NCBI RefSeq assembly: GCF_055900595.2
Contig: NZ_CM148325.1
Direction: 5' to 3' (one strand)
DNA: 64,000 nt
The notes under the pieces are model-generated. The model saw only the letters and a program-made list of their open reading frames with translations. It was not told where the DNA came from and searched no databases. This document shows, in pieces, positions 4,314-58,543 of this stretch. Position numbers and translations under genes: made by a program. Each line of letters starts with the position of its first letter. Within the stretch, counting starts at the first letter, position 1.

Positions 4314-5429
4314 TTAGAACTGGTAGACGATACCAACTGCAAACTGGTCATCAGCTGCTGCGCCAGTAATGGCGGCGTCATCTTTATCCAGCATGTTGAA
4401 TTTGTATGCAGTATAAACGTTCATGTTCTTATTAAAGTAGTACCAGGTACCAACTTCAATGTAGTTCACACGGTCAGCGTCAACATATCTATGTCCAGGT
4501 ACCCCTTTGATATCTTTACCTTTAGAGTACACATAACCTAAGGACGGACGCAGACCAAAGTCGAATTGATACTGAACAACCGCTTCAAAGTTCTGGGTTT
4601 CATTGATAAGTTGATCACGCATTATTGTATTGCCTTCTCGATCGGCAACACCTGTATCAATAGAACCCGGAGTCATATTACGAGTTTCGCCGTACATTAC
4701 AGCTGCGTAGACATTGTTCGCGTCATACTTTGCAGCCAACGACCACAGTTCAGCATTTGAACCGTTTCCATCGGCAACTTGATCGTTGGTGCGATCAGAT
4801 TTGCTATATGCACCAACGATACCAAAACCATTGATGTTATAGTCTACAGACAACGCATAGCCGTCACCATTTTGTTTCTTAGTGCTACGGTTGCTGTTTT
4901 TGCCTTGGTACTGAATCGCAAAATCAAGACCATCAACCAGGCCAAAGAAATCATAGTTACGGTAGGTTGCAACACCGTTGGTACGACCATTCATGAAGTT
5001 GTCAGCGGAAGCCCAGGAATCGCCACCCCATTCAACTAACATATCGGTATAAGCTGCGGCATCATAAGCAACACCGTAGTTACGGCCATAGTCAAATGAT
5101 CCTAACTCGTTATATTTCAAACCGGCGAAGGTTAAACGGGTTTTTTCCTGGTTTTCACCTTCGGGCTTGCTGGCGTCGAGGTTGTATTCAAACTGACCAA
5201 AACCAGTCAGTTCGCTGGTGATTTGGGTTTCACCTTTAACACCGAAACGAGCATAGGAGGTATCTTCGTTTTCGCTGTTATTATCATCAGTATTTGACCA
5301 GATGCGTTCGCCAACCATCTTGCCGTAGAAATCAACTTTATTGCCATCTTTATTATAAATTTCAGCCGCATTTGCTGCGCCAGCAACTAATAACGCCGGG
5401 ACCAGCATTGCCAGAACTTTTCTTTTCAT
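4314..5429 (-). CDS. yedS: Outer-membrane general porin, OmpC/NmpC family, apparently intact
   Basis: Track ORF 4314..5459; start trimmed to [21 protein letters not shown] signal peptide; C-terminal ...GIVYQF beta-barrel signature. Confidence 0.8.
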
Positions 5430-11528: not shown

Positions 11529-14053
<2,525 letters not shown>

Positions 14054-20033: not shown

Positions 20034-21161
20034 TTAGGCGAAAATATCAACGCCGCTGTTGCCTGTTACGCGCCCTTGTAAAGAGACGGGAACCGGAAGC
20101 GTATCGTCTTCTTCCCCCGCCAGAGGTTCATGGTTTACTGTGCGTTGGCTTTGCTGTTGTTGGGAAGCGGCCTGCTGCTGACCACTAAAGCTTTCGCCAC
20201 TGATGTTGCTTTGCCCTAACTGAATGCCACTTTCGGCCAGCTGCGTACGCAGTACCGGCAGCGCTGCTTCCAGGGCGGCGCGTACATGCTGATGCGGTGA
20301 AACCATCTGGATTTGTGCCTGGTTATCATCCACTTTGAGGGAGATTTGCACTTCACCTAAATCCTGCGGGTGCAGACGCAACTCTGCACTTTGTTGCCCC
20401 TGGCGGGTGAACAGCGAAATATGCTGGCTTAATGATTGTTGCCATTCGTGAGAACCCAGCGGTGCACTCAACACAGGCGCGGCGACGGTGGGCAGTGGCT
20501 GTGTCTGGTGTGGAGTGATTAGCGGGCTGGCGGCAGCGGTCACCGGTGAAGGTGTGCTGATGACTTCCGCTTTACTCTGGGCTTCTGCTACCAGCGGTGT
20601 TAATGGCTGAGCTGGCGTGCCGGGGGCATCATCAGGCTGTGCTGTTGTGAGTTGCGCAGAAGTCAGTTTTGTGAAGAGCGTTGGTTTCTCTGCCGGTAAC
20701 ACGGTTGACGGCACATCAGTCACTTTGGGCGTATTGTCAAAACCCGGCAACATCGCAAAAAGGGCGCTCAGGCTTGCGGTGACGTCTTCATTCAGATCAT
20801 CCGCTTTTTCGTCTTTTGCCGTATTGTTGCCAGCCACCGCAGCCAACGTCATCGTTTGAGCGGTGGTTAATGGTGTTGATGTGGATTGTTCGTCGTTGAT
20901 GACAGGCGGTGTTTCATCCACAGGGATCAGTAAATCCGCTTGTTGCGCATCGGCAAGAATCTCGCTGACCAGCGGCTCGCCTTTTGTCGTGGGCTTATCT
21001 GTTGCCACCAGCAACTGGGGGGCCGCTTTGTCGGTAGTTGTCTCGCCTGCTAATGCTTCGCTCAACAACGCGAGAAAATCTTGTGCAGCATCGCTGGCTT
21101 TGCCGCCAGGCAATGTGGTGGTGTCAACGTCGGCGGTAATCAAGGGCGCTAAGCGAATCAT
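20034..21161 (-). CDS. fliK: Flagellar hook-length control protein FliK
   Basis: 375-aa ORF with a Pro/Ala/Thr-rich central region. Confidence 0.9.
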
Positions 21162-27179: not shown

Positions 27180-27512
27180 ATGAACCCTTATATTTATCTT
27201 GGTGGCGCAATACTTGCAGAGGTCATTGGTACAACCTTAATGAAGTTTTCAGAGGGGTTTACACGGTTATGGCCCTCTGTTGGCACAATTATTTGCTATT
27301 GTGCATCATTTTGGTTATTAGCTCAGACACTGGCTTATATACCTACAGGGATTGCTTATGCTATCTGGTCAGGAGTCGGTATCGTTCTGATTAGTTTGCT
27401 TTCCTGGGGATTTTTTGGCCAACGACTGGACTTGCCAGCCATCATAGGCATGATGTTGATTTGTGCCGGTGTGTTAGTCATTAACTTGTTGTCACGAAGC
27501 GCACCGCATTAA
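27180..27512 (+). CDS. emrE: Small multidrug resistance (SMR) efflux transporter EmrE
   Basis: 110-aa four-TM protein MNPYIYLGGAILAEVIGTTLMKFSEGF... with the conserved Glu14; ATG at 27180 inside a longer track ORF. Confidence 0.9.
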   Translation: MNPYIYLGGAILAEVIGTTLMKFSEGFTRLWPSVGTIICYCASFWLLAQTLAYIPTGIAYAIWSGVGIVLISLLSWGFFGQRLDLPAIIGMMLICAGVLVINLLSRSAPH

Positions 27513-27680
27513 AAAATAATCATCCTTGAGATAACAGGAATCTGATTTGTGCATATTATGGCTAATGTTCGGGGCAACTTTATAATTATGATTGCATTTG
27601 CGCGATCATTGCGCCTTTTTGCATAATGAGATCAATGCACATCAAATAAAATAACGATAGGTCACAACAAAGAGGTTTTT

Positions 27681-28232
27681 ATGAAAAAACTTATCGTTTC
27701 AAGTGTATTGGCATTCATAACATTTTCTGCGCAGGCCGCAGCATTTCAGGTCACTAGTAATGAAATAAAAACAGGAGAGCAACTTACAACGTCTCATGTA
27801 TTTTCTGGATTTGGGTGTGAGGGGGGTAATACATCGCCCTCATTAACCTGGTCTGGTGCTCCAGAAGGCACCAAAAGCTTTGCCGTAACTGTGTATGATC
27901 CAGATGCGCCTACAGGCAGCGGATGGTGGCACTGGACTGTTGCTAATATTCCAGCAACGGTAACATATTTGCCCGCTGATGCAGGAAGACGTGATGGTAC
28001 AAAACTTCCGACTGGTGCTGTCCAAGGCCGAAATGATTTTGGCTATGCGGGATTTGGTGGAGCATGTCCTCCCAAAGGAGATAAACCCCATCATTACCAG
28101 TTTAAAATATGGGCTCTAAAAACTGATAAGATTCCTGTGGATTCTAATTCCAGCGGAGCGTTAGTTGGTTATATGCTTAATGCCAATAAAATTGCAACCG
28201 CTGAGATAATACCCGTTTATGAGGTAAAGTAG
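27681..28232 (+). CDS. ybcL: Periplasmic PEBP/RKIP-family protein YbcL
   Basis: 183-aa ORF with signal peptide; matches YbcL. Confidence 0.85.
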   Translation: MKKLIVSSVLAFITFSAQAAAFQVTSNEIKTGEQLTTSHVFSGFGCEGGNTSPSLTWSGAPEGTKSFAVTVYDPDAPTGSGWWHWTVANIPATVTYLPADAGRRDGTKLPTGAVQGRNDFGYAGFGGACPPKGDKPHHYQFKIWALKTDKIPVDSNSSGALVGYMLNANKIATAEIIPVYEVK

Positions 28233-28241
28233 GATAAGAGT

Positions 28242-29039
28242 ATGCTGGCAAAAGATAGGACTAACCTAAAGATTGAAGAAATACGGATGCATAAACATCA
28301 TGAGATTCACAGGGTTAAGCCTCTTATGCCAGCTTTATGTCGTATCCGTCAGGGAAAAAAAGTTATCAATTGGGAGACGCATAGTCTAACTGTTGATAAT
28401 AATCAGATAATATTATTTCCCTGTGGATATGAATTTTATATTGCGAATTACCCAGAAGCAGGTCTTTATCTTGCAGAAATGCTTTATTATCCCATTGATC
28501 TAATTGAAAAGTTCCAAAATCTTTATGCGATAACCGATCAAATTCGTAACACGACAGGTTTCTGCTTACCTCAGAATCCCGAGTTAATATATTGTTGGGA
28601 GCAACTAAAAACATCTATTTCCCGAGGCTTCTCAACGCAAATTCAGGAACACTTAGCAATGGGCGTTCTACTTTCATTAGGAGCACATCATGTTAATTGT
28701 TTACTTTTATCAGATAGTAAACAATCATTAATAAGTCGTTGTTATAACCTAATGCTATCCGAACCTGGAACAAAATGGACAGCAAACAAGGTAGCGAGAT
28801 ATCTCTACATTTCTGTTTCCACATTGCATCGCCGTCTGGCAAGCGAGGGAGTAAGTTTTCAAAGTATATTGGACGACGTGAGGTTAAATAATGCGTTGTC
28901 TGCTATACAAACGACAGTAAAACCCATCAGCGAGATTGCCAGGGAAAATGGTTACAAGTGTCCTTCTCGTTTTACTGAAAGGTTCCATAATCGTTTTAAG
29001 ATAACACCAAGAGAGCTAAGAAAAGCGTCCAGAGAGTAA
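28242..29039 (+). CDS. ybcM: AraC-family transcriptional regulator YbcM
   Basis: 265-aa ORF with C-terminal AraC-type HTH. Confidence 0.82.
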
Positions 29040-29330
29040 AAGTATTTTATGAAGGAGCAACAGCATCGATTTTTATTTTAGAAAATAAATACGGCATACT
29101 CAACCTATTGGAGCCTGAACAATCCGGTGACTTCTGCGCTAATCGGGGACGTTTATAAGCACATATAATTGATATTATCGTCCTCCATCACAATTTCAGA
29201 AATGCACGTGTGATTTTTTTGCATCCGGCGTTTGGACTATGTGGAGTTCAAGAGTGGGAAAGTTACAAGAGGTTGAGGGGATAATTAAAGGGATGCTTAT
29301 GACATTAGATATCCGGATAGGTACGGATAT

Positions 29331-29390
29331 CGTTGTTATTAAATCTAGTTTGTTGTTATTAAATCTAGTTCGTTGTTATTAAATCTGGTT
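29331..29390. repeat. Three tandem copies of a 20-bp unit (YGTTGTTATTAAATCTRGTT)
   Basis: Direct head-to-tail copies at 29331-29350, 29351-29370 and 29371-29390, differing at one or two positions each. Confidence 0.9.
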
Positions 29391-30019
29391 TATACGTTAA
29401 GATGCAACTACAGCAGAAATTGCCACTGTTAATTTTTTCATCGTGAGCCCTTTTATTTGAACTATTATTTAAAAATGATGTCACTGCACTATAAATATTC
29501 ATCCAATCAATGAGATTATTTCAAGATGTAAGTTTTAGTTTCTCATTTAAATTGTGAAGTAGATCCCTATCTTTATCTGAACTGTTTCTATTGCACACAA
29601 TGCATGACTATTTTGTGAACGAATATAAATTTGGTAGTCAAATTATATTAAAGGTTGTTATTTATGATTGACTCATAATTTATTTATTTAATTTAAATAG
29701 CCTAGAAATAACCATGGAAATTATTTGCATGATGTTTGTTTGGATTTATTAATGTAATTGAGGTGGTTTTATTTAATACGCAATATAGCGCCGCTTGATA
29801 TTAGTTCTATTTTTTTTGCGTAAGATAGATGAGACAAACAGAGACGCATAATGGTTTGCAAGGCTCTAATACTTTGATGTTGAGGATGTGATGGGGCATG
29901 TACGGGGCATAGTACAATGATGTCCATGCTGGTGTAGATAATCTCCAGGCTTATCCGGTGCGCCGTAAAACCCCGTCCTTCAGGGCAGGGATATAAGGCG
30001 CGGTTTTCCACCTGACCAG

Positions 30020-30443
30020 GTGTTTGCTGTTGTTCAATGTATTGGCGGATGACGGATATTGGCGCACCTCCGCAGCTACTGGCAAAATAGCCAGCACTCC
30101 ACAAAACGCCTTTGTAGTAATACCTGACTGCAATATCTGGTCGATCTCGTCGCAGTCACCTACCCGATACGCCTTTGAGGCTGTTTACCAGACTGGATAT
30201 CGCCAGTTTGGGAGGATAGTTAATTAACAAATGGACGTGATCTGGTTCGCCATCCATTTCAACCAGTTCAGCTTCAAAATCAGCGCATACATTTGAAAAG
30301 TAAGCGCGTAGTTTTTCTGTCGCGTCATGGTCAAAAATCTGACGTCGGTATCTGGTGACAAAGACCAGGTGAACATGCATCAGGAAAACACAATGCCTTC
30401 CACGCCGGATATCGGTTTCTTTTTTCACAGACCAAAGTATCAT
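30020..30443 (-). pseudogene. tnpA: IS200/IS605 TnpA (HuH Y1 transposase) interrupted by an in-frame TGA after codon 95
   Basis: N-terminal 95 aa carry the HuH motif (HVHLVF); TGA at 30156-30158; the same frame continues ...YYYKGVLWSAGYFASSCGGAPISVIRQYIEQQ (conserved TnpA C-terminus). Confidence 0.75.
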
Positions 30444-30450
30444 TTGGCCT

Positions 30451-31659
30451 GTGAAACGACTACAGGCATTTAAATTCCAGTTAAGACCAGGTGATCAACA
30501 GGAGTGTGAAATGAGGCGCTTCGCAGGCGCATGTCGTTTCGTTTTCAATCGTGCTCTGGCGCTTCAGAATGAGAATCATGAGGCCGGTAATAAATACATC
30601 CCTTACGGGAAAATGGCTTCCTGGCTGGTTGAGTGGAAAAATGCCACTGAAACGCAATGGCTTAAAGATTCTCCCTCACAGCCATTGCAACAGTCACTGA
30701 AAGACCTTGAGCGGGCTTACAAAAACTTCTTCCGGAAGCGGGCTGCTTTTCCCCGATTCAAAAAGCGGGGACAGAATGATGCATTCCGCTACCCGCAGGG
30801 CGTTAAGCTCGATCAGGAAAACAGCCGTATTTTTCTGCCGAAACTGGGCTGGATGCGTTACCGCAATAGCCGTCAGGTCACGGGTGTTGTGAAAAATGTC
30901 ACTGTCAGCCAGTCCTGCGGTAAGTGGTACATCAGTATTCAGACAGAAAGTGAAGTATCCACTCCGGTTCACCCTTCAGCATCAATGGTCGGGCTGGATG
31001 CTGGCGTGGCTAAACTCGCCACGCTGTCAGATGGCACAGTCTTTGAGCCTGTAAACAGTTTTCAGAAAAACCAGAAGACGCTGGCGAGACTTCAGCGACA
31101 GTTAAGCCGCAAGGTCAAATTCAGCAACAACTGGCAGAAGCAGAAACGCAAAATACAGCGACTGCATTCCCGTATCGCAAATATCCGCAGGGACTACCTT
31201 CACAAAGTCACAACGACCGTCAGCAAAAACCACGCAATGATAGTCATTGAGGATTTGAAGGTCAGCAACATGTCAAAGTCAGCAGCGGGTACGGTCAGCC
31301 AGCCGGGGCGCAATGTCCGGGCAAAATCAGGTTTAAACCGTTCGATACTGGATCAGGGCTGGTATGAAATGCGCCGCCAGCTTGAGTACAAGCAGCTCTG
31401 GCGTGGCGGTCAGGTGCTTGCTGTTCCGCCAGCGTACACAAGCCAGCGTTGCGCGTGCTGTGGTCATACAGCGAAAGAAAATCGCCTGTCACAAAGTCAA
31501 TTCAGATGCCAGGTATGTGGATATACAGCGAACGCCGATGTAAACGGCGCTCGTAACATTTTAGCGGCGGGGCACGCCGTTCTTGCCTGTGGAGAGATGG
31601 TGCAGTCAGGCCGCCCGTTGAAGCAGGAACCCACCGAAATGATTCAGGCGACAGCCTGA
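30451..31659 (+). CDS. tnpB: TnpB (IS605 OrfB) RuvC-like RNA-guided endonuclease, apparently intact
   Basis: 402-aa ORF with RuvC-I (GLDAG), RuvC-II (IVIEDLKV), zinc finger (CACCGH...CQVCG) and RuvC-III ([10 protein letters not shown]). GTG start at 30451; an ATG at 30511 is the alternative. Confidence 0.85.
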
Positions 31660-31698
31660 ACGTAGCAGGGATCCTCGTCCTTCAGGGCGTGGAGGATG

Positions 31699-32370
31699 TC
31701 AACAAACAGGTTGAATTAACTCCGCGCCCTGGTTTTTGACATTACCTACCGCGCGCGATACCGGGTGCCAGGTGAACTGGTTTGCTGGCACACAGCCGTT
31801 GGTAGCAATTTCTGATGCTTCTTTACCGCCAATCTCTTGCCGCATCCATTCCCGCGCAGCTTCTGGCGACAGTACCAGCGGGCGGCGGTCATGAATATCT
31901 ACCAGACCCTGGTCTGCTGCTGCAGTGACAATTAAAAATCCTTCGGCTTCGTCACCGCGCTCAAACGGTGTGCTACCTATCGCGGCCATAAAAACAGGTT
32001 GTCCGTCAGCACGATAGATAAAATAAGGCTGTTTTTTGTCGCCTTCTTTTTTCCACTCAAACCAGCCATCGGCAAAACAGATTGCCCGACCATGTTGCCA
32101 GAGCGGTTTAAACATACGACTGGTGGCCGCAGTTTCTACGCGGGCGTTAATCAGCGGCGGTTTATCCCACCATCCGGGAGCATATCCCCAGAAAACCGGA
32201 TCCAGATGAAGGTGTTCATCACGTTCACTGAGCAGAAGAACTTTGGTTCCCGGCGCGACGTTGTATCTGCCAATGGGTTCGGGATCATAGGGAATATCGC
32301 GTTCAATATCTTCCGCGAGAAGCGCAAGGTAATCTTCACGCGTTTGGGATTGGGCAAAGCGTCCACACAT
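31699..32370 (-). CDS. yedK: SOS-response-associated peptidase (SRAP) YedK
   Basis: Start trimmed to MCGRFAQ (catalytic Cys2). Confidence 0.85.
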   Translation of the reverse strand: MCGRFAQSQTREDYLALLAEDIERDIPYDPEPIGRYNVAPGTKVLLLSERDEHLHLDPVFWGYAPGWWDKPPLINARVETAATSRMFKPLWQHGRAICFADGWFEWKKEGDKKQPYFIYRADGQPVFMAAIGSTPFERGDEAEGFLIVTAAADQGLVDIHDRRPLVLSPEAAREWMRQEIGGKEASEIATNGCVPANQFTWHPVSRAVGNVKNQGAELIQPVC

Positions 32371-57028: not shown

Positions 57029-58543
57029 ATGCAACAGTCTACCCCGTATCTCTCATTTCGCGGCATCGGTAAAACGTTTCCCGGCGTTAAGGCGCTGACG
57101 GATATTAGTTTTGACTGCTATGCCGGTCAGGTTCATGCGTTGATGGGTGAAAATGGCGCAGGAAAATCAACTCTCTTAAAAATCCTCAGCGGCAACTATG
57201 CGCCAACCACGGGTTCTGTAGTGATTAATGGGCAGGAAATGTCCTTTTCCGACACGACCGCAGCACTTAACGCGGGCGTGGCGATTATTTACCAGGAACT
57301 GCATCTCGTGCCGGAAATGACCGTCGCGGAAAACATCTATCTCGGCCAGCTGCCGCATAAAGGCGGCATTGTGAATCGCTCATTGCTGAATTATGAGGCG
57401 GGTTTACAACTTAAACATCTTGGTATGGATATTGACCCGGACACGCCGCTGAAATATCTCTCCATTGGTCAGTGGCAGATGGTTGAAATCGCCAAAGCGC
57501 TGGCGCGTAACGCCAAAATTATCGCCTTTGATGAGCCAACCAGCTCCCTCTCTGCCCGTGAAATCGACAATCTTTTCCGCGTTATTCGTGAACTGCGAAA
57601 AGAGGGGCGGGTGATCTTATACGTTTCTCACCGTATGGAAGAAATATTTGCCCTCAGCGATGCCATTACTGTCTTTAAAGATGGACGTTATGTCAAAACC
57701 TTTACCGATATGCAGCAGGTTGACCACGACGCGCTGGTGCAGGCGATGGTCGGGCGCGACATTGGCGATATCTACGGCTGGCAACCGCGTAGTTATGGCG
57801 AGGAGCGCCTACGTCTTGATGCTGTGAAAGCACCAGGCGTGCGTACGCCAATAAGTCTGGCGGTTCGCAGTGGTGAAATTGTTGGGCTGTTTGGTCTGGT
57901 AGGGGCGGGGCGTAGCGAATTAATGAAAGGCATGTTTGGCGGGACGCAAATCACCGCCGGTCAGGTTTATATCGACCAACAGCCGATCGATATTCGTAAA
58001 CCGAGCCACGCCATTGCCGCAGGCATGATGCTCTGCCCGGAAGATCGCAAAGCGGAAGGCATTATTCCCGTGCACTCCGTTCGCGACAATATCAACATCA
58101 GTGCCAGACGTAAACATGTGCTCGGCGGTTGTGTAATCAACAACGGTTGGGAAGAAAACAATGCCGATCACCACATTCGTTCGCTCAACATCAAAACGCC
58201 GGGCGCGGAGCAACTGATCATGAATCTCTCAGGCGGAAATCAGCAAAAAGCCATTCTGGGCCGCTGGTTATCGGAAGAGATGAAGGTCATTTTGCTGGAT
58301 GAACCTACGCGCGGCATTGATGTTGGCGCTAAGCACGAAATATATAACGTAATTTATGCGCTGGCGGCGCAGGGCGTGGCGGTGCTGTTTGCCTCCAGCG
58401 ACTTACCTGAAGTCCTCGGCGTTGCCGACCGGATTGTGGTGATGCGGGAAGGTGAAATCGCCGGTGAATTGTTACACGAGCAGGCAGATGAGCGTCAGGC
58501 ACTGAGCCTTGCGATGCCTAAAGTCAGCCAGGCTGTTGCCTGA
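57029..58543 (+). CDS. araG: Arabinose ABC transporter ATPase AraG
   Basis: Start trimmed to [15 protein letters not shown]; two ABC cassettes. Confidence 0.92.

Follow-up and report, generated by a model that had tools for sequence, protein, structure and literature searches.

Among the closest described relatives of the element considered here is IS608 of Helicobacter pylori, whose top strand carries two subterminal palindromes in the same orientation, IPL at the left end and IPR at the right, and which inserts 3' of a T-rich tetranucleotide without target duplication (PMC3201880). IS608 is cleaved 3' of TTAC, 19 nucleotides (nt) 5' of IPL, and 3' of TCAA, 10 nt 3' of IPR. The cleavage tetranucleotides pair with guide tetranucleotides situated 5' of the hairpin feet (C-3 to G1, T-4 to A2, the final base to base 4). 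Two bases immediately 3' of IPR, A-10 and G-9, take part in base triples, and an AT stands directly 3' of IPL (PMC3201880). The present analysis concerns a stretch of 64,000 nt of Escherichia coli DNA (contig NZ_CM148325.1 of assembly GCF_055900595.2), the whole of which is here called the window. An original prediction, made from the sequence alone, had taken a 13-nt motif that occurs twice in the same orientation for the hairpin cores at the two ends of an IS605-family element. The element is IS609, and the two copies of the motif are, with little room for doubt, the cores of IPL and IPR, the subterminal palindromes of this 1748-bp element, which would work by an IS608-like mechanism and is present here as a decaying copy. 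Both the element and the mechanism are already known, and the original prediction recognised the ends correctly, though not in every detail.

Identity and boundaries of the element

The assignment to the IS200/IS605 family is borne out by direct comparison with named copies. The window copy aligns without any indel, and with the same termini, to the O157 copy that the Prokaryotic Genome Annotation Pipeline (PGAP) names IS609 (36 differences in 1748 positions, 97.9% identity), the transposase of the O157 type being annotated as 'IS200/IS605-like element IS609 family'. IS609, of which the insQ/ydcM locus of K-12 is a remnant, is thus matched in its length of 1748 bp and at 97.9-99.4% nucleotide identity to copies elsewhere. 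These copies share with that of the window the divergent arrangement of tnpA and tnpB, the ends and the TTAT target; the window copy differs from them in five private substitutions and in its site, inside the stop codon of yedK.

The segment 29900-31760 matches thousands of E. coli genomes, and the same internal segment is found in unrelated contexts, at yoaG/DUF1869, at DUF3251/nrdR, at ydcL-ydcO (the K-12 insQ locus) and at a TetR gene beside ytfB. Four copies at other sites are all 1747-1748 bp long, with TTAT before them, GTCAA at their end and no target duplication. An empty site at the locus of the window, which the original prediction had proposed to look for in other E. coli genomes, is present in strain ESBLEC_HM24, where CTCCAGGCTTAT is joined directly to CAAACAGGTTGAATT (in short form, GGCTTAT to CAAACAGG), and the junction is exact to the base. 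Comparison of the empty with the occupied site places the insertion 3' of TTAT without target-site duplication, as is usual in the IS200/IS605 family, and precise empty sites are also present for three other IS609 insertion sites. The base that follows GTCAA varies among copies at different sites (C, G, T, T, A) and therefore depends on the site, so that TCAA is the final tetranucleotide of IS609. The direct subterminal hairpins do bracket the element, as had been predicted, and its true ends are those given in Table 1. Of 5426 complete E. coli genomes 1095 have the same insertion junction, which argues for an old, vertically inherited insertion.

Table 1. Coordinates of IS609 and of features at its ends in the window, followed by the sites at which a 46-nt hybrid of the two ends occurs outside the window.
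Feature	Position	Strand	Remarks
IS609 (IS200/IS605 family)	29955..31702	+ (top, active strand)	1748 bp, CCGGTG...GTCAA; placed by empty site L001 and copies L002, L004-L006
Target and left cleavage tetranucleotide C_L, TTAT	29951..29954	+	stands next to the left end of each mini-element and of 5 out of 5 full-length copies from different sites
Left guide tetranucleotide G_L, AAAA	29967..29970	+	directly 5' of the hairpin foot; position as IS608 G_L (PMC3201880)
Left imperfect palindrome IPL, CCCCGTCC-TTCA-GGGCAGGG	29971..29990	+	contains the core at 29974-29986
tnpA pseudogene (Y1 HUH transposase)	30012..30443	-	L96 to TGA, P117A, stop TAG to CAG
tnpB, apparently intact RNA-guided nuclease	30451..31659	+	402 amino acids; NF040570, 391.8 bits
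Right guide tetranucleotide G_R, GGAT	31669..31672	+	from the IS608 pairing rule (C-3:G1, T-4:N2, A-1:T4; PMC3201880); one G.T pair in its match to TCAA
Right imperfect palindrome IPR, CCTCGTCC-TTCA-GGGCGTGG	31673..31692	+	contains the core at 31676-31688
Right-end tail AGGATGTCAA	31693..31702	+	A-10 and G-9 at the IS608 base-triple positions; C_R TCAA = 31699-31702
yedK (SRAP peptidase)	31699..32370	-	stop codon in the last IS bases, 31699-31701 (TCA, TGA on the - strand)
Predicted guide portion of omega/reRNA, right flank CAAACAGGTTGAATTA	31703..31718	+	predicted from the TnpB paradigm; antisense to the 3' end of yedK
Hybrid, phage-plasmid			between repressor and terminase genes
Hybrid, nleD site			next to nleD
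Hybrid, HK97 and HK106	HK97 20865-20910		between tfa and the sib/att/int region
Hybrid, pUMNK88_Hly
Hybrid, prophage lysis region
Hybrid, 933W and VT2-Sakai	933W 57867-57912; L016:1001-1046		in L0135
Hybrid, H-19B, 933J and Stx1 phages	AF034975.3 (H-19B) 12154-12199; L017:1001-1046		41 nt upstream of stx1A
Hybrid, Salmonella IncFII plasmid
Degenerate hybrid copy, IncI2 mcr-1 plasmids
Hybrid, further coordinates	L007:1505-1550; L008, L012, L013:1201-1246; L009/L011/L015:1201-1246 or 1001-1046; L019:1001-1046; L018:998-1043

Anatomy of the two ends

The left end (LE) consists of the target TTAT, the insertion point, the 12 nt CCGGTGCGCCGT, AAAA, the palindrome CCCCGTCC-TTCA-GGGC[G]GGG and ATAT. 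The right end (RE) consists of GGAT, the palindrome CC[A]CGTCC-TTCA-GGGCGTGG, AG, GATG and TCAA, after which the element ends. Both palindromes have an 8-bp stem with one T.G pair and a TTCA loop. They lie in the same orientation on the + strand and are accompanied by no terminal inverted repeats, an arrangement that characterizes the ends of the IS200/IS605 family. IPL and IPR differ only at the third base pair, which is C-G in the LE and A-T in the RE, so that the difference is compensated. The left palindrome stands as the original prediction described it. In the window copy each of the two stems is flawed by one base: G29987A, private among the five copies compared, produces a C.A mismatch in IPL, and T31675, found also in copy L004 where most copies have A, produces a T.T mismatch in IPR.

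Both ends were folded as single-stranded DNA (ssDNA) on exact 28-nt units, with the intact and with the window alleles. The intact units give exactly the 8-bp hairpins. Intact IPL reaches -7.5 kcal/mol (z -3.0), as against -2.5 kcal/mol (z -0.2) for the window allele; the version of IPR with A folds at -7.7 kcal/mol (z -3.7), as against -4.5 kcal/mol for the allele in the window. The right-hand stem that had been drawn in the prediction, ATCCTC...GAGGAT, was upheld in part only. The pairing does exist in this copy, but it is not the conserved stem, which is CC[A/T]CGTCC-TTCA-GGGC[G/T]TGG; it needs T31675, and A stands there in most copies and in a relative with 85% identity in TnpA (see below). 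The ATCC of ATCCTC moreover overlaps the guide tetranucleotide GGAT.

This layout closely matches that of IS608. Both elements have same-orientation palindromes on the top strand with guides 5' of the feet, an AT directly 3' of IPL, an AG after the foot of IPR and the cleavage tetranucleotide TCAA 10 nt 3' of IPR, and both insert 3' of a T-rich tetranucleotide with no target duplication (PMC3201880). They differ in the target and its guide, which are TTAC and AAAG in IS608 and TTAT and AAAA in IS609, in the right guide (GAAT in IS608, GGAT in IS609), and in the left spacing, which is 19 nt in IS608 and 16 nt in IS609. The tnpA gene of IS608 is co-directional, whereas that of IS609 is divergent from tnpB, as in IS605, and the similarity between the two TnpA proteins is distant (E 7e-19).

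Covariation in related elements

IMG/VR was scanned with the TnpA protein for relatives of IS609, and three of them, with TnpA identities of 85%, 82% and 50%, are instructive. The 85% relative (L023 type) has the target TTAT with the guide AAAA and a left stem CCCCATCC/GGTCGGGG, and at its right end the guide GAAT with TCAA and a stem CCACGTCC/GGGCGTGG. The 82% relative (L029, end at about 2930-2990 on the top strand) has TTAC with AAAG and the left stem of IS609, its right end lying beyond the end of the contig. The 50% relative (L031-L033, ends at 2920-2975 and 4650-4690 on the top strand) has TTAG with AAAC and a left stem CCTCGC[C/T]C/GGGCGGGG, and on the right GAAG with TCAC and a stem CCTCGCC[C/G]/[G/C]GGCGGGG. 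The last bases of target and guide thus covary, as T:A, C:G and G:C on the left and as A:T and C:G on the right. This covariation of guide and cleavage site falls exactly where the IS608 rule predicts it and, as judged from these alignments, is natural retargeting.

The hairpins themselves change in a similarly concerted manner. The LE and RE of each relative carry that relative's own stem, the 50% relative having CCTCGCCC/GGGCGGGG at both ends. When 17 distinct LE and RE units from IS609 and the three diverged relatives are aligned, 91.2% of cells are paired, as against at most 61% in slid registers, and two stem pairs show double changes; the compensatory changes are from C-G to A-T and from C-G to G-C. 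An IS609-like left end was also seen on the Xylella fastidiosa plasmid pXF-CFBP8478 (L020:2499-2600), where TTTTAT is followed directly by CAGGTGCGCCGTAAAACCCCGTCCTTCAGGGCAAGG and a remnant of the 3' part of tnpA is present.

A proposed mechanism on the IS608 model

By analogy with IS608, the top strand (the + strand of the window) would act as ssDNA in which each palindrome folds to a hairpin of 8 bp with a loop of 4 nt. TnpA, a transposase of the Y1 HUH (histidine-hydrophobic-histidine) class, would bind as a dimer, one subunit to each hairpin. It is proposed that both ends carry a near-identical hairpin in the same orientation because a single TnpA dimer binds both. The cleavage points would be read by base pairing and not by the protein, with G_L AAAA pairing with TTAT and G_R GGAT with TCAA; TnpA would cleave 3' of each of these two tetranucleotides and excise a single-strand circle. 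The right hairpin would in addition lie at the 3' end of the expected guide RNA of TnpB, and this nuclease would then cut the vacated site again. For most of the window the + strand shows a positive GC skew (cumulative +0.43), consistent with a top strand that lies on the lagging-strand template.

Several points weigh against this account of the ends. What we infer of binding and cleavage by IS609 TnpA is carried over from IS608 and from ISDra2 of Deinococcus radiodurans (the 'peel and paste' scheme), and the skew argument is weak at the scale of 64 kb. The GGAT of G_R pairs with T-4 through a G.T wobble only. The left hairpin of the 85% relative contains a 2x2 internal loop, so that the stem is not strictly conserved, and the LE and RE cores of that relative differ at 3 of 12 positions; exact identity of the 13 nt at the two ends is a feature of IS609 and not a requirement of the family. 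Longer segments of the window copy, 51 nt folded as ssDNA, give insignificant z scores of -0.4 to -0.6, and of only -0.4 to -1.2 over both strands, and tell little beside the exact 28-nt units. Finally, the right end has a second possible pairing of 9 bp (CGTCCTTCA/TGGAGGATG, loop GGGCG, 31676-31698), which competes with the conserved hairpin. In the 46-nt hybrid described below this second pairing gives the fold of minimum free energy; the 50% relative has not conserved it.

The right hairpin and the predicted guide RNA of TnpB

A rather different view is that the right hairpin has been kept mainly for a role in RNA, as the 3' module of the omega RNA or right-end RNA (reRNA) or in stabilizing the 3' end of the tnpB mRNA, its likeness to the LE being secondary. 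The TnpB of IS609 is homologous over its full length to that of ISDra2 (E 8e-55 against the ISDra2 TnpB structures, residues 3-376). ISDra2 has TTGAT as its target and as the transposon-associated motif (TAM) of its TnpB, where IS609 has TTAT. The logic expected to be common to the two elements is that the TAM equals the target, that the guide RNA derives from the right end, and that its guide portion corresponds to the right flank; by this analogy TTAT is likely to be the TAM of IS609 TnpB.

When the 3' regions of six tnpB genes are folded to a consensus, IPR is the terminal hairpin, after several stems and with 14 compensated pairs, in what is mostly coding sequence; the modelled fold fits the expected right-end-derived guide RNA. 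In Rfam no family reaches its gathering threshold. Three sub-threshold matches at 31586-31715 (+), RAGATH-18 (25.4 bits), HgcC (19.3) and sot0042 (16.3), serve as leads only. HgcC and sot0042, both archaeal RNAs, align on IPR and the GGAGGAnGUCA that follows it. The hairpin and tail at the 3' end of their consensus (CCCCGCCCUUCAGGGCGGGGAGGAnGUCA) are very similar to the right end of IS609, which suggests conservation of a right-end module among IS605-family elements of bacteria and archaea.

The terminal stem of the consensus fold and the archaeal matches on this hairpin both speak for such a role in RNA. On the other side, the same hairpin stands at the left end, downstream of the 3' end of tnpA, where such an RNA role is inapplicable, the stems of LE and RE change together from relative to relative, as expected if one protein reads both, and the Rfam scores of 16-25 bits are far under the gathering thresholds. 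We therefore regard a mainly RNA-level role as improbable, though by no means fanciful, and keep to binding by TnpA as the principal reason for the hairpin. RNA-level and TnpA-binding roles of the right hairpin are not mutually exclusive.

A 46-nt hybrid of the two ends

Outside the window, and absent from it, a 46-nt sequence, CCGGTGCGCCGTAAAACCCCGTCCTTCAGGGCGTGGAGGATGTCAA, was traced from a 36-nt plasmid match. It comprises nt 1-32 of the LE and the last 14 nt of the RE, joined through the 13-nt core, and this junction is the product expected of a deletion between the two motifs. At a coverage of at least 80% the hybrid is found in 2716 of 5426 E. coli genomes, in 107 phage records and in 475 plasmid records. 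It occupies 8-9 distinct sites, all in phages or plasmids (Table 1), and at each of them it follows (T/C)TTAT and ends in TCAA, with the exception of the degenerate IncI2 copy. The copy near stx1 is situated between a Fur-box-like sequence (GAATATGATTATCATTTTCATT) and the start codon of stx1A, is present also in M16625.1, M19473.1 and 46 records of Stx1a-converting phages, and probably lies within the stx1 leader.

Two explanations of this distribution can be put forward. Tentatively, and with rather less than even confidence, we suggest that the exact identity of the cores lets IS609 collapse to, or persist as, a 46-nt element mobilised in trans by TnpA, which would be a one-hairpin, REP-like (repetitive extragenic palindromic) minimal transposon. 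Equally allowed is that IS609 inserted repeatedly and was afterwards deleted between the cores, with selection for the deletion on size-limited phage and plasmid genomes. Mobility of a single hairpin is unexpected under the two-hairpin model of IS608, because the hybrid lacks G_R and has a C.T mismatch in its stem.

No genome carries the hybrid at any of the four chromosomal full-length IS609 sites, two of which have an intact tnpA, and none carries full-length IS609 at the nleD or tail-fibre sites of the hybrid, the two sites tested. For the nleD site no empty counterpart was found, the hybrid being carried by 18 of the 18 genomes that have the locus; the right flank of that site, preceded by TTTAT, is shared by plasmid fragments only. 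The IMG/VR scan for the hybrid yielded no insertion sites beyond those already known. In the paper library, searched by sequence, no description of either end or of the hybrid was found, and where papers mention IS609 it is mostly in listings of mobilomes. An apparent mini-element at ydcL-ydcO in E. coli HH45 (L014; NZ_CP116411.1 2493628-2493789) was set aside as an assembly artefact, since the IS609 locus there consists of a run of about 19 G joined to the final 25 nt of the RE and so looks like a collapsed assembly.

The hybrid can be compared with two kinds of small derivative. Like the palindrome-associated transposable elements (PATEs) and similar MITE-like (miniature inverted-repeat transposable element) derivatives of the IS200/IS605 family, it is non-coding and keeps the target TTAT and the termini of its parent; the PATEs described, however, have two separate ends, whereas the hybrid is a single hairpin without G_R. 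Like the REP elements mobilised by REP-associated tyrosine transposases (RAYTs), it is essentially a guide tetranucleotide and one hairpin, but there is no RAYT for it and its 8-9 or so sites are all in phages or plasmids. On the bottom strand of L033, at about 4985-5050, a degenerate single-hairpin unit of a related element was observed (CAGTGCGCCGTAAAGCCCGTCCTTCATGGCCGGGATAGTGTCAA), and single-hairpin derivatives may thus not be limited to IS609.

Chance and generic repeats

The motif, CGTCCTTCAGGGC, is exact at both of its positions (the cores in Table 1), both on the + strand, as had been predicted, and no other exact copy exists in the window. Its mere repetition means little. On the + strand of the window 94 distinct 13-mers are seen at least twice, where about 30 chance pairs are expected. 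With up to two mismatches allowed, 3 matches are found as against 1.24 expected, which is chance level, and this holds also for the sole 2-mismatch match (73-85, - strand). A 13-nt direct repeat alone has no significance in 64 kb; it is the position of the two copies that carries the signal. Each lies within 32 nt of an end of the element, these ends being set independently by the empty site and by four other insertions, and by our own arithmetic only about 5e-5 matches would be expected for two 60-nt end regions.

The possibility that the 13-mer is a chance repeat, or a generic REP-like repeat unrelated to the IS, draws on these counts and on the occurrence of the motif at many non-IS places in E. 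coli pangenomes. All of those non-IS occurrences, though, are the precise LE/RE hybrid of IS609, flanked by TTAT and TCAA, and copies outside the window are always accompanied by IS609-specific LE and RE sequence (CCGGTGCGCCGTAAAA on the 5' side of the core, GTGGAGGATGTCAA on the 3' side). Throughout the IS609 copies inspected the motif stands at fixed distances from independently set ends, and in the relatives the hairpin covaries along with the guide and cleavage code. REP sequences and the bacterial interspersed mosaic elements (BIMEs) built on them would appear as many dispersed intergenic palindromes independent of any IS; the window holds two copies, each at an IS end. In this window the motif is thus not such a repeat, and origin by chance or as a generic repeat is very improbable.

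State of the window copy

It is clear that the transposase gene of this copy has decayed. Within tnpA an in-frame change of TTA to TGA has occurred at codon 96 (30156-30158), and the natural stop TAG (30012-30014) is now CAG, so that the frame continues into flanking DNA as far as 29769; PGAP records an internal stop and an incomplete gene with its C-terminus missing. The intact TnpA homologue matches NF033573 (145.7 bits, cut-off 55) and the TnpA structures of IS608, ISDra2 and Sulfolobus. The stop at L96 parts the HUH motif from the C-terminal tyrosine helix, and this copy therefore cannot yield an active transposase. A frameshift in tnpA was considered and rejected, as both pieces of the open reading frame lie in one frame and there are no indels relative to the intact copies L002 and L004.

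The open reading frame that runs through the left hairpin had led to the suggestion that the left end may be rearranged. The frame exists as described and PGAP calls tnpA incomplete, but a rearranged or truncated left end, with the hairpin a relic displaced into the tnpA frame, is scarcely credible, given that all 1748 positions align with intact copies from the first nucleotide by substitutions only, that the left junction agrees with the empty site to the base, that the read-through is due to the single change of TAG to CAG, shared with two other pseudogene copies, and that intact copies, too, have their tnpA stop past the hairpin, 57 nt from the left end.

The tnpB gene is better preserved. 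Its product has the motifs GLDAG, VIEDL and NADVNG and two CxxC pairs, and differs by 1 amino acid from the TnpB of a copy with intact tnpA; from its sequence tnpB looks still functional. The divergent start codons are separated by 7 nt (30444-30450), with the ATG of tnpA at 30443 (-) and the GTG of tnpB at 30451, so that either each promoter lies inside the other gene or the true start of tnpB is an in-frame ATG 20 codons downstream. The five private substitutions comprise G29987A in the left hairpin, the L96 stop, P117A and two others, and the signs of decay as a whole are the L96 stop, the lost tnpA stop codon, G29987A in IPL and T31675 in IPR. The window copy is most simply seen as a fixed relic which, though decaying, has kept tnpB; probably immobile, it could move only with TnpA supplied in trans, and then probably poorly.

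Surroundings of the insertion

IS609 has inserted within the stop codon of yedK (31699-31705), where ...CCT GTT TGA at the empty site has become ...CCT GTT TGT TGA at the occupied one. The coding sequence is 669 nt long in the empty-site strain and 672 nt in the window, so that YedK gains one C-terminal Cys and takes its new stop from the terminal TCA(A) of the IS. The element is flanked by fliE-emrE-ybcL-ybcM on the left and by yedK-yedF-yedE on the right. Between fliE and the IS, at about 27400-29950, lie the emrE-ybcL-ybcM cassette and a gap of about 900 bp (29040-29950) that is AT-rich and poor in ORFs; emrE, ybcL and ybcM are genes of the DLP12 prophage in K-12, and yedL-yedN-yedM-intG occupy this map position there. 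The strain with the empty site has an ompC-like porin gene on the left instead. Strain 203740 was rejected as an annotation proxy for the whole window, with which it is collinear only from about 1 to 50360; beyond about 50360 the window has the K-12-like yecA-tyrP...araFGH-otsBA backbone and not the island of strain 203740.

Significance

The finding itself matters little, and shows chiefly that the ends of IS200/IS605 elements are recognisable from sequence alone. For this copy of IS609 the exact coordinates, the TTAT target, which is also the likely TAM of TnpB, and the state of decay aid annotation. IS609 and its relatives taken together furnish a clean natural covariation series for the guide and cleavage code described in IS608, and the core shared by the two ends explains the widespread 46-nt stump of IS609 in lambdoid and Shiga toxin (Stx) phages and in conjugative plasmids. 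If the hybrid is mobile, nature would offer in it a single-hairpin substrate that connects IS200/IS605 elements with REP-like repeats.

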